DNA from: Candidatus Hermodarchaeota archaeon
GTDB taxonomy: Archaea; Asgardarchaeota; Lokiarchaeia; Sigyniarchaeales; SOKP01
Length of the DNA stretch: 64,000 nt
Direction: 5' to 3'
Assembly: GCA_048885525.1 (NCBI GenBank)
Contig: JBHLLP010000001.1
Span: 97,227-161,226, forward strand
Within the stretch, counting starts at the first letter, position 1, and every line of letters starts with the position of its first letter. The position numbers were made by a program, and so were the translations under genes. Shown one piece after another: positions 46,887 through 50,307 of this stretch. Below the pieces are notes generated by a model, which was not told the DNA's origin, searched no databases, and saw only the letters and a list, made by a program, of their open reading frames with translations.

Positions 46887-48242
46887 TTATTTTAACATTT
46901 TTTTTTCTTTTGCATCTAAATCGAGCCAATCACCAACATTTTTGAGCTGTTTTCTCGACTTTCCACATAAAGTTTTTAAAAAAGGAAGGAATTCTTGGAT
47001 GAAATCAATTTCAGAAATTTCATATTTTCTTTTAATCTTTTCAACAAATTCTTTTTCAATATTTGTTAAAGAAAAATAAGTTCCTGTTATATATCGTGGA
47101 AATACAACTCTTTGAAATCCTTTTGATAAAGGTGTATCTTTTCGCGATAAAACAACTCCGCCAGCAAACAGATCAAAAAAGTAGGGTAGTAGTCCCCAAT
47201 ATTGGGTAGTTTGAATTCTACCAAAAATCTCATCTGCTATTGAAAGATTCTCAAAAGCCTCAGTAAGGTCTCTATTTGATTTTATGAAAGTAAGGAGATT
47301 TTCATTTATCCATTTATACAAAAAGTTGTAATCAACATCAGATTTATCAGTCAAATTGCGAGCTTCTCTTAAAGAATTTATTTTAAATAAATCCCTAATT
47401 AATGTAAAAATCTCTTCCAAATTATCACGATGTAAACTTAAAATTAAATCCCTGAGATCCCCTTCTATCTTACCTTGACCAATTCCTTGAATATCGTTAA
47501 TTACTCCTCTTAAATCACCGCTATTTTTATCAATAATTAACTCTAAATCCTCATTTTTAAGATTGGTAATATTTTCCTTTTTCAGAATATTTTTTGCTAT
47601 CTTTATTACTTCATTTTTAGGTAAGGGATGAACCTCATATCTTTTAATCTTATTATATAATGGCTGAAGATTTGTTTTATATTCATTAGAACACATTATA
47701 ATGGGGAACTGTGTATTCTTAATTAACTCCATAACTGTCGGAATGGCCCCTCTATCTTGAACTCCATAAATACCATCAATTTCATCAATTAGAATTAACT
47801 TTTCTTTTGATTCAGTAATAAAATCCATGATTCCACGAGATTTTGTAGTTTCTCTTAATCTTTTTTCTAATGCGCTCCTCGTTCGTGTATCAGAAGCATT
47901 AGTTTCTATTACTTCCATATTAAAATCATTAGCAAGGGCATAAACTATGGATGTTTTTCCAATTCCAGGTGGACCTTCTAAAAGAATGGCAGCTTTATCA
48001 TAAGATATGTGTTGTTCTTCTTTTTGTTCTTTTTCAATAGTAGTTCTATTGAACTCTCGAATTAGTTTATTCTCTCTATTAATACGATTTCTCTCTTCAA
48101 AGAATTGGTTTAAAAAATTTGTTAATTCTTCATCTAACTTAACTCTTTCTCTACCATACCTCGCAGTGGGTAAAGCCATTTCTTTAATACTTTTAGGACG
48201 ATATTTCTCAACCCATGGAATATTTGAACCATTTTTTGACAT
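46887..48242 (-). CDS. rfcL: Replication factor C large subunit
   Basis: PWVEKYRP, GPPGIGKTS, NASDTR, LIDEIDG, GDLRGVIND. Confidence 0.93.
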   Translation of the reverse strand: MSKNGSNIPWVEKYRPKSIKEMALPTARYGRERVKLDEELTNFLNQFFEERNRINRENKLIREFNRTTIEKEQKEEQHISYDKAAILLEGPPGIGKTSIVYALANDFNMEVIETNASDTRTRSALEKRLRETTKSRGIMDFITESKEKLILIDEIDGIYGVQDRGAIPTVMELIKNTQFPIIMCSNEYKTNLQPLYNKIKRYEVHPLPKNEVIKIAKNILKKENITNLKNEDLELIIDKNSGDLRGVINDIQGIGQGKIEGDLRDLILSLHRDNLEEIFTLIRDLFKINSLREARNLTDKSDVDYNFLYKWINENLLTFIKSNRDLTEAFENLSIADEIFGRIQTTQYWGLLPYFFDLFAGGVVLSRKDTPLSKGFQRVVFPRYITGTYFSLTNIEKEFVEKIKRKYEISEIDFIQEFLPFLKTLCGKSRKQLKNVGDWLDLDAKEKKMLK

Positions 48243-48255
48243 TTACTTTACACAC

Positions 48256-49311
48256 CTACATGTACTCTGAAAACAGACAAATTTTTGACAAGAGAGCAGA
48301 TATTTGAATGTCAATATCTCTACTATCAAGTGTTCTGAAGTCAGAATCTGCAATTAAATTTATTAGTTTAATCTTAGTAAATGTACTTAGCGGTAATTTA
48401 TTGATTTCAATAAGTAAAAGTTTATATAATTCATGAGCACTAAATTTGTAATTCGAAAGGATTCTTCTTGCTAATTCCCGAGCTTTTGGAAAATCTCCTT
48501 TAAAAACTATTAATAAAAGACTTCTAATAAGATCGTTATGAAATTTCTGGGCGTTTTCATATAAATCTTCAATACTGATATTATTATCAGTTATACTACT
48601 TAACTGTAAGAGATCAATAGCTCGAGAGATTTTGCCATCCGAAATTCGATACAATATTTCAATACTTTCATCTGTTATTTCTAATGATTCTTTTTTAGCA
48701 ATTTCAAGAATCAAATTCCTAAATTCGTTTAATCTAACACGAGAAATTAAAATAATTTGGCATCTACTTACAATTGGATCAATAATACTTGAAATTTTAG
48801 TTGTAATTAAAATCATCCTGCAATTTGTGCCATAAATCTCCATTAATCTTCTAAAACCTTGTTGGTTTGAACCTAAGGCTTCAAAATTTTTCACAATTAA
48901 GATTTTAAATGGTGCTTCTCCTAATACTTTCAATTCAACAAAAGTTTTTACTTTAGCTTGAATAAAAGCTGGAGTAGTAATTCTTCTTCCAGCAATACTA
49001 CCAATTTTACTTGTAGAAACATACGTATCTGCTCTAACTTGTTTCCTTTCCTCCTCGGTTAAAGGAACATCAGCATAAACTAATTTAAAATTAGCATCAT
49101 AATCTTTGTTTAAAAATTCTTTCGAAAATAATTTAGCAATCATTGTTTTTCCAATGCCTTTCTCACCAAAAAATAATAAATGTGGAAAATTTTTTTGTTG
49201 AATTGCATACTTTAAAGTATCCTTAACCTTTTCTCTTCCACAAATTTCATCCAAATCTTTTGGATAATACTTTATTCGCCAAATAGGAATTTCTTCAGTC
49301 AAATTTACCAA
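48256..49311 (-). CDS. rfcS: Divergent second RFC small subunit (degenerate Walker B)
   Basis: WRIKYYP, PHLLFFGEKGIGKT, IVKNFE in place of DEAD, QQGFRRLME, IVSRC. Confidence 0.85.
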   Translation of the reverse strand: MVNLTEEIPIWRIKYYPKDLDEICGREKVKDTLKYAIQQKNFPHLLFFGEKGIGKTMIAKLFSKEFLNKDYDANFKLVYADVPLTEEERKQVRADTYVSTSKIGSIAGRRITTPAFIQAKVKTFVELKVLGEAPFKILIVKNFEALGSNQQGFRRLMEIYGTNCRMILITTKISSIIDPIVSRCQIILISRVRLNEFRNLILEIAKKESLEITDESIEILYRISDGKISRAIDLLQLSSITDNNISIEDLYENAQKFHNDLIRSLLLIVFKGDFPKARELARRILSNYKFSAHELYKLLLIEINKLPLSTFTKIKLINLIADSDFRTLDSRDIDIQISALLSKICLFSEYM

Positions 49312-49341
49312 CCCTCAAATCTAAGTTTTTTCAATTATTTC

Positions 49342-50307
49342 TTAAGTTTGAATATTTTCTATAATCATTGCTAAAAGAGCCGATATCTGCATTTGGTCAT
49401 CTGCCCCTTGACTTATTCGATAATCAATTTCTCCGATATATGTCCTTAATTGTATGAATTTTTTAGCTTCTATATTTAATGATGGTAAAACTTCTGAGAT
49501 TTGTCTTATGAAATTACGGCTGTCAAGAATATCAATCGAATCCATAAGTTTCCTCGAACCTAAAAAATCTTTATTTTTTAAAGCCAAAATTAGGTTTTCT
49601 AGAGTTTTTTTATCTAAAAATCCAGAGATTCTTAAAATCTCATCGATATCTAAATTATTTAGAAGTTCGAGAGCAACTGCCATCTGAAGAGTATTTATAG
49701 CTTTTCTTAAATCTCCTCCCGAAATAAAATATAATTGATCAAAGAATTGCTCAGCTTTATCAGATGGAATTTTCAATTTTTCGTTATCAATAATATATTT
49801 TAATCTCTCTATTATCTTTTCTTTTGGCAGATTTACAAATCTAAATACAGCACATCTACTTACAATTGGATCTATTATTCTATTTATATAATTGCATAAT
49901 AGTATGAATTTTATATTATTTGATGCCTTCTCAATAATTCTTCTAAGAGCTTGCTGGACTTGTCCTGGAATATTATCAGCTTCATCCAGAATAACAAATT
50001 TTAAGGTTCCATCTTTTACTAAACTTTGATTAACAAAATTCTTGAGAACATTTCTCACAAAATCTATTCTTACAGTATCAGAAGCATTTAATTCCAAAAG
50101 ATTTGTGTCAAACTCTTCCTCTTTAAGAAAATGCTTTGTTATTATCAAAGCAGTACTGGTTTTTCCGGTTCCTGCAGGCCCAGTAAATATCAAGTGAGGT
50201 ATATTTGTACTCCTTACGAATTTTTTAAGATTATTTATAGCAATACTTTGACTTAGAATTTCATCAAATATTCTGGGGCGATATTTTTCTGTCCAAACGT
50301 CTAACAT
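49342..50307 (-). CDS. rfcS: Replication factor C small subunit (canonical)
   Basis: WTEKYRP, GPAGTGKT, LELNASD, LDEAD, QQALRR, SRC, GDLRKAIN. Confidence 0.95.
   Translation of the reverse strand: MLDVWTEKYRPRIFDEILSQSIAINNLKKFVRSTNIPHLIFTGPAGTGKTSTALIITKHFLKEEEFDTNLLELNASDTVRIDFVRNVLKNFVNQSLVKDGTLKFVILDEADNIPGQVQQALRRIIEKASNNIKFILLCNYINRIIDPIVSRCAVFRFVNLPKEKIIERLKYIIDNEKLKIPSDKAEQFFDQLYFISGGDLRKAINTLQMAVALELLNNLDIDEILRISGFLDKKTLENLILALKNKDFLGSRKLMDSIDILDSRNFIRQISEVLPSLNIEAKKFIQLRTYIGEIDYRISQGADDQMQISALLAMIIENIQT

Follow-up and report, generated by a model that had tools for sequence, protein, structure and literature searches.

An RFC1-register PIP-type motif in the AAA+ domain of the replication factor C large subunit from a Lokiarchaeales clade

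Structural work has established that clamp-loader subunits in general contact the clamp through the loop downstream of AAA+ helix alpha4. The human RFC1 element has been described as a classic PIP box resembling that of p21, whose second aromatic residue is Tyr703, and it forms the largest PCNA contact of the complex, burying ~2000 Å2 (Gaubitz et al.). Human Ctf18 and RFC5 contact PCNA through atypical, weaker PIP motifs, of which the Ctf18 motif has been placed in the AAA+ domain, and an older comparative study found PIP boxes to be progressively weaker in RFC1, RFC3, and RFC5.

A eukaryote-like clamp loader has already been published for Lokiarchaeales. Feng et al., 2025 (Nat Ecol Evol; PMC12680538) described a 'eukaryotic-like RFC complex' composed of RfcL, RfcS1, RfcS2, and RfcS3, in which rfcS3, rfcS2, and rfcL form an operon, rfcS1 lies elsewhere, and RfcS2 has no Walker B motif and is an analogue of RfcE. 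The four RFC proteins of Ca. Harpocratesius repetitus co-purify, a recombinant complex exists, and RFC has been modeled together with PCNA and DNA by AlphaFold3. In the same study, RfcL was phylogenetically close to eukaryotic RfcA and the small subunits were tied to RfcB–E, and no clear structural signal set the RfcL of Lokiarchaeia apart from that of other clades. The term PIP is absent from their text. The motif described here therefore adds detail to a known system and is not a new system; relative to Feng et al., the additions are the RFC1-register motif itself, the S/T/N residue at its first position, the length of the loop that carries it, and an insert before Walker A.

The RFC operon and its large subunit

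In the window (the whole stretch of DNA analyzed, 64,000 nucleotides with a G+C content of ~30%), three tandem RFC genes in the order rfcS3–rfcS2–rfcL occupy positions 46887–50307 of the minus strand, separated by gaps of 30 and 13 nt. A fourth gene, rfcS1, lies outside the operon, on the same contig as the only PCNA gene of the genome (G000) and ~17 kb from it, so that the genome has all four RFC genes reported from Lokiarchaeales.

49342..50307, minus strand: rfcS3, 321-aa small subunit, first gene of the operon (NF001679, 310 bits; cut-off 303)
48256..49311, minus strand: rfcS2, 351-aa ATPase-degenerate small subunit, 13 nt upstream of rfcL (from its Walker boxes and neighbors)
46887..48242, minus strand: rfcL, RFC large subunit, 451 aa (from profile, solved-structure sequence search, and Foldseek)
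G000 C3:72445-73107 (L003:1210-2181), minus strand: rfcS1, canonical 323-aa RfcS
G000 C3:89891-90259 (L001:1072-1875), minus strand: PCNA, 267 aa

The operon, the separate rfcS1, and an RfcS2 without Walker B all match the published Lokiarchaeales system: RfcS2 of the window keeps its Walker A (GEKGIGKT) and has IVKNFE in place of the Walker B DExD. An RfcS2-type neighbor adjoins rfcL in 11 of 11 loci of families f1 and f2, where these neighbors likewise give no DExD match, and the RfcL motif described below coincides with this type of neighbor gene in all 11. In families f27–f29 of the same class (loci L108–L113), the RFC-small-like gene beside rfcL also has no DExD match by regular expression; its scores against RfcS2 and RfcS3 are roughly equal, and RfcL there has the short loop. 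A degenerate small subunit may be older than the RfcL motif. As a separate observation, the C-terminal tail of this genome's PCNA, EEAEFDEDEDMDEF, is strongly acidic.

RfcL matched the NCBIfam profile NF003229 (PRK04195, 'replication factor C large subunit') at 298.3 bits (cut-off 280), with residues 6–450 aligned to positions 3–409 of the 413 in the profile. Its best sequence match among solved structures was human RFC1 (6vvo_A, E 5.9e-20, query residues 6–353), which outranked every small subunit. We modeled the protein with AlphaFold2 from a 118-sequence alignment (mean pLDDT 85.7), and a Foldseek search with this model placed the yeast and human Rfc1 A chains first (~490 columns, nearly full length), followed by Ctf18 and then the small subunits. 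This ranking is expected of any RfcL orthologue, and no archaeal RfcL chain was among the solved-structure matches listed for either search. The closest homologues (76–88% identity) come from metagenome-assembled genomes named Promethearchaeota, Lokiarchaeota, or Lokiarchaeia in their source records.

All four AAA+ boxes (KYRP, Walker A GPPGxGKT, NASD, and Walker B DExD) are present in the RfcL sequence, and the corresponding columns of alignment A1 are invariant or nearly so. Of the NASDTR residues, N115, A116, S117, D118, and R120 fall in nearly invariant columns.

47952..47975, minus strand: Walker A GPPGIGKT, residues 90–97 (G90, G93, G95, and K96 invariant in alignment A1)
47883..47900, minus strand: RFC box NASDTR, residues 115–120 (read from the sequence; anchor for the motif offsets)
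47775..47798, minus strand: Walker B LILIDEID, residues 149–156 (D153, E154, and D156 nearly invariant)

RfcL itself is an ordinary essential replication factor, which occupies the A position in the eukaryote-like clamp loader that Lokiarchaeales encode with four RFC genes. It shares Walker A, NASD, Walker B, and domain order with canonical archaeal RfcL of the Pyrococcus and Haloferax RFC-B type, its orthologous A subunit. The canonical proteins differ in being ~480–530 aa long, in ending in QxxLxxFF (a PIP noted for Haloferax RFC-B in PMC7776575), in having a short Q-x-S-L-F loop, and in placing Walker A ~40 residues from KYRP.

An internal PIP-type motif after helix alpha4

The original prediction had placed an internal motif, SRGIMDFI, at 47840–47817, downstream of NASDTR within the AAA+ domain. 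Translation of the open reading frame agreed exactly, with a distance of 15 residues between the two elements.

47841..47879, minus strand: helix alpha4 of the AAA+ module, residues 122–134, which presents the motif (AlphaFold2 secondary structure)
47817..47840, minus strand: internal PIP-type motif SRGIMDFI, residues 135–142 (alignment with RFC1, conservation)

In two HMMER searches, alignments that were gapless from NASD onward paired SRGIMDFI with NTSIKGFY of human RFC1 and NMSVVGYF of yeast Rfc1, and the numbering of the human chain was consistent with Tyr703 as the final residue of NTSIKGFY. The motif occupies positions NASD+20 to NASD+27, the offsets of the RFC1 N-x-[ST]-h-x-x-a-a box, and ends in Ile rather than in an aromatic residue. 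The RFC1 element equivalent to it touches PCNA in solved complexes, so the claim that eukaryotic RFC1 carries an internal PIP-like motif at this position holds, both by alignment register and by the published RFC1 PIP box. Measured against the canonical PIP box Q-x-x-[ILM]-x-x-[FY]-[FY], SRGIMDFI has the aliphatic residue at position 4 (I138) and the aromatic residue at position 7 (F141); the glutamine of position 1 is not present in the motif, which has Ser135 there instead.

For the distribution of the motif, we scored [ILMV] at NASD+23 together with [FYW] at NASD+26, at fixed offsets, in RfcL from 121 genomes sampled throughout the phylum and 81 throughout the class, with extra loci added, in 147 representatives at 50% identity drawn from 1.84 billion proteins, and in 92 eukaryotic RFC1 sequences. 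The clade carrying the motif (the Loki clade) was delimited by GTDB family codes and by the tree.

Own family: 41 of 41 species with the h-x-x-a pattern
Sister family of the same order: 6 of 6
Metagenomic 50%-identity representatives in the same clade: 16 of 16
Remaining Asgard families, three of them from the same class: 1 of 51
Other archaeal representatives: 6 of 110
Eukaryotic RFC1: 70 of 92

Thus, the motif proved to be conserved in orthologues: all 63 RfcL of the order and clade have the pattern, which goes beyond a chance occurrence, and they form one clade with support of 100/100. Because these 63 sequences are kin, they amount to one conserved character, an innovation of one clade, and not to 63 independent events. 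The I, F, and I/V of the motif are strictly kept across orthologues with identities of 60–88%.

Neighboring features of the loop distinguish the clade as well. At NASD+20, the position of the PIP glutamine, Loki clade members have S, T, N, or A and RFC1 has N, T, or S, with Q or E predominating elsewhere. The distance from NASD to the DE of Walker B is 38 residues in 41 of 41 family members, compared to medians of 33–34 in other archaea and 45 in RFC1. The typical archaeal RfcL loop is a shorter Q-x-S-L-F-G, in which Leu and Phe are adjacent. This ordinary L-F loop is closer to the I-F pair of human RFC5 than to a full PIP box, and the RFC5 pair in turn is closer to it than to the Loki motif. 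Ctf18 and RFC5 nevertheless resemble the Loki protein in having degenerate PIP-like motifs whose hydrophobic residues enter the conserved hydrophobic pocket of PCNA; they differ in that the Ctf18 motif has no aromatics (M419, V422) and RFC5 uses its adjacent pair. The likeness to RFC1 comprises the NASD+20 to +27 offset, the h-x-x-a-a spacing, the polar residue other than Gln at +20, the longer loop between NASD and Walker B, and the site of an insertion discussed below. [quoted passage not shown]

The earlier suggestion of a eukaryote-style clamp contact needs to be narrowed. The exact RFC1 register of the motif and its strict conservation speak for it, but what is eukaryote-like is the geometry of the loop and not the possession of an internal contact as such. 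Judged from the aligned sequences, the eukaryote-like part of the motif loop is its h-x-x-a-a geometry, the S/T/N in place of Q, and the greater length.

We consider it probable, as the best-supported explanation, that RfcL takes an RFC1-style internal grip on PCNA and does so in the absence of a C-terminal tether; the sequences establish where the motif lies, its register, conservation, and spread over the clade, and that no tail PIP is present, and we infer PCNA binding and insertion into the PCNA pocket. According to this explanation, RfcL would most likely grip PCNA through the loop after helix alpha4, which the clade would have remodeled from the short archaeal Q-x-S-L-F form to a longer S/T-x-x-[ILM]-x-x-[FY]-[IV]. 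I138, F141, and I142, at PIP-box spacing, would coil into a single helical turn and fill the hydrophobic pocket that lies beneath the interdomain connecting loop in one protomer of PCNA, as RFC1 does with its N-x-S-[ILV]-x-x-[FY]-[FY] sequence. With no flexible C-terminal PIP tether on RfcL, clamp engagement would rest on this internal contact and on the small subunits.

DSSP assigned a one-turn helix at residues 138–140 of the AlphaFold2 model, straight after helix 122–134, with pLDDT ~60, and the motif loop was less confident than its surroundings (block means of 60–74 between confident flanking elements). In the model, the one-turn helix and the low pLDDT are weakly consistent with an exposed partner-binding loop. 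The hydrophobic residues might instead pack on the AAA+ domain or on a neighboring subunit, with PCNA held mainly by the small subunits. The missing Gln, the Ile rather than an aromatic residue at the last motif position, and the L-V pair that RfcS3 has at its own equivalent loop would all fit such packing. We regard it as improbable, however, given that the equivalent RFC1 element and the atypical PIPs of Ctf18 and RFC5 contact PCNA in published work, that a low-pLDDT loop between confident elements is typical of exposed loops, and that I, F, and I/V are so strictly conserved.

C-terminal tails and other PIP boxes of the genome

The C-terminus of RfcL reads ...GDWLDLDAKEKKMLK and, as first proposed, has no PIP tail of the form Qxx[ILM]xx[FY][FY].

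46890..46955, minus strand: C-terminal helices, residues 430–451, with a conserved W-L-x-L-D and no PIP box (AlphaFold2 model, sequence)

A canonical C-terminal PIP box was found in 0 of the 63 clade members, so orthologues do not supply the tail that the window protein is missing, and a search of the last 25 residues for QxxhxxAA found no match in the window RfcL or in the 63 clade members. Three clade tails appeared PIP-like by a loose regular expression; at least those of family f1 look more like a conserved structural Trp motif of the I-S-D-W-F type, and no tail among those read is canonical.

How unusual is this? The statement that a C-terminal PIP box is the usual means by which archaeal RFC-L binds PCNA turned out to be too strong, in that PIP-like tails occur in 20 of 51 other Asgard and 22 of 110 other archaeal representatives. 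As a tail PIP is found in a minority of archaeal RfcL, an RfcL without one is not unusual in itself. Moreover, most archaeal RfcL of ~400 aa have no tail PIP, and many of these have kept the short loop, which shows that an RFC1-type box is no prerequisite for losing the tail and counts against an internal grip that takes the place of the tether.

Within this genome, the missing tail is specific to RfcL, because other PCNA clients have canonical C-terminal PIP boxes. FEN1 ends in QVSLDDFFK, and ORFs of 510, 610, 266, and 1173 aa (G000 C17, C28, C36, and C56) end in QKKITSFF, QKRINEFYY..., QKRLSEFF, and QHKLSDFF, respectively; from these C-terminal sequences, the four ORFs are probable PCNA clients. 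There are two FEN1 homologues, L116 (G000 C4:82861-83904) and L117 (G000 C83:3225-4244). One of the two is above the TIGR03674 cut-off and has the QVSLDDFFK ending, whereas the second is divergent, with a score of 276 bits that falls below the cut-off, and ends in QITLDNLL. A divergent Asgard Fen1-2 is discussed by Feng et al., 2025.

The last 20 residues of RfcL are helical rather than disordered, with helices at 430–439 and 444–450 and pLDDT ~80 in the AlphaFold2 model, and the W-L-x-L-D type of tail recurs in the ~400-aa RfcL of other archaea. One could take this D-W-L-x-L-D helix for a disguised, non-canonical PCNA tether, in view of a Trp-Leu pair that is conserved across the family and the similar tails of other ~400-aa RfcL. 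Yet the tail is predicted to be a folded helix-turn-helix of the last domain and not a flexible one, it has no Q-x-x-h-x-x-a-a pattern, and packing within that domain accounts for its conservation; we judge a disguised tether to be highly improbable.

The pre-Walker A insert and the relationship to RFC1

The long insert before Walker A that had been noted from the sequence is real: 77 residues separate KYRP from the Walker A glycine in the window RfcL, compared to ~38–41 in most other Asgard RfcL and 62–70 in eukaryotic RFC1.

48003..48173, minus strand: lineage-specific insert, residues ~24–80, consisting of a beta-hairpin (26–35) and a long helix (36–67) (AlphaFold2, pLDDT 93–97)

The hairpin is specific to the family. 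The helical part (32 residues in the window protein) occurs in most of the order with varying sequence and is absent from genus g3 and from part of the sister family f2. We considered homology between this insert and that of RFC1 and rejected it as evidence, as the two have only their site in common, with no sequence similarity, and as it is missing from g3 and part of f2. Nearly all of the 92 eukaryotic RFC1 carry the RFC1 C-terminal domain PF08519 and most carry BRCT PF00533; neither domain gave a Pfam match in the window RfcL.

Outside the Loki clade and RFC1, the h-x-x-a pattern turns up in one Heimdall-like family and among a few unrelated archaeal representatives; in some of these it stands alongside a C-terminal PIP box. 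This sporadic occurrence in unrelated archaeal RfcL indicates that the pattern can arise more than once. The Heimdall-like case is L059 (G091 C49, family f24), which matches a protein named Heimdallarchaeota via P0137. Its 522-aa RfcL has an internal S-S-L-T-N-F-L, giving h-x-x-a-h at the same offsets, and also ends in a canonical C-terminal PIP box, QMTLDDFF. This protein might represent an intermediate state or have arisen independently.

We calculated a site-heterogeneous tree (LG+C20 PMSF) from 51 rows after masking both the motif loop and the insert. In this tree, RFC1 fell outside a clade of all archaeal RfcL (support 96/87), within which the Loki clade was nested. Forcing RFC1 and the Loki clade together cost 8.8 log-likelihood units and was not rejected (AU p 0.26). 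Under LG+G4, the tree with RFC1 forced to join the Loki clade exceeded the quick free tree by 21 log-likelihood units (p 0.83), and a tree with RFC1 forced to join the Heimdall-like group exceeded it by 6 (p 0.62). The placement of eukaryotes in the quick trees was dropped as evidence, since these trees were sub-optimal, a constrained tree being more likely. Taken with the placement in the masked tree, these AU values make the gene tree uninformative on descent of RFC1 and Loki RfcL from a common source; on the sequence data, common descent is neither supported nor rejected. This outcome agrees with Feng et al., 2025, who also state 'statistical uncertainty' on the origin of RfcL.

Two accounts of the resemblance follow. 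It may be convergence only, the motif being this lineage's own version of the universal alpha4-loop contact, with an RFC1-like spacing that arose independently, no functional difference from the Q-x-S-L-F loop, and no bearing on eukaryotic ancestry. The position of RFC1 outside archaeal RfcL and of the Loki clade inside it in the masked tree, the sporadic pattern in 6 of 110 other representatives and one Heimdall-like family, and an insert that varies within the order and matches RFC1 in site but not in sequence speak for convergence. It fits less well with the failure of either model to reject RFC1 plus the Loki clade, with the report of Feng et al. that Lokiarchaeales RfcL is closest to eukaryotic RfcA, and with the coincidence of three characters, namely the motif spacing, the S/T/N residue at +20, and the lengthened loop. 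Weighing these, we hold convergence to be distinctly possible, if somewhat short of an even chance.

Alternatively, the RFC1-register box, its S/T/N first position, the longer loop between alpha4 and Walker B, and the pre-Walker A insertion could be synapomorphies that unite Lokiarchaeales RfcL with the ancestor of RFC1, Ctf18, and Elg1, which we think rather unlikely. If this were so, the whole rfcS3–rfcS2–rfcL operon, including the large subunit and not just the small-subunit pair, would have passed from a Lokiarchaeales-like lineage to the eukaryotic stem, and the grip of the eukaryotic A subunit on PCNA would predate eukaryotes.

The RFC1-style internal grip remains our preferred explanation for how this RfcL engages its clamp. 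A conserved, testable character in the PCNA-contact loop gives the question of RfcL origin an experimental handle. If the motif is used, this archaeon would already have the PCNA grip of the eukaryotic A subunit; if it is not, the clade would represent a convergent remodeling of the clamp-contact loop.
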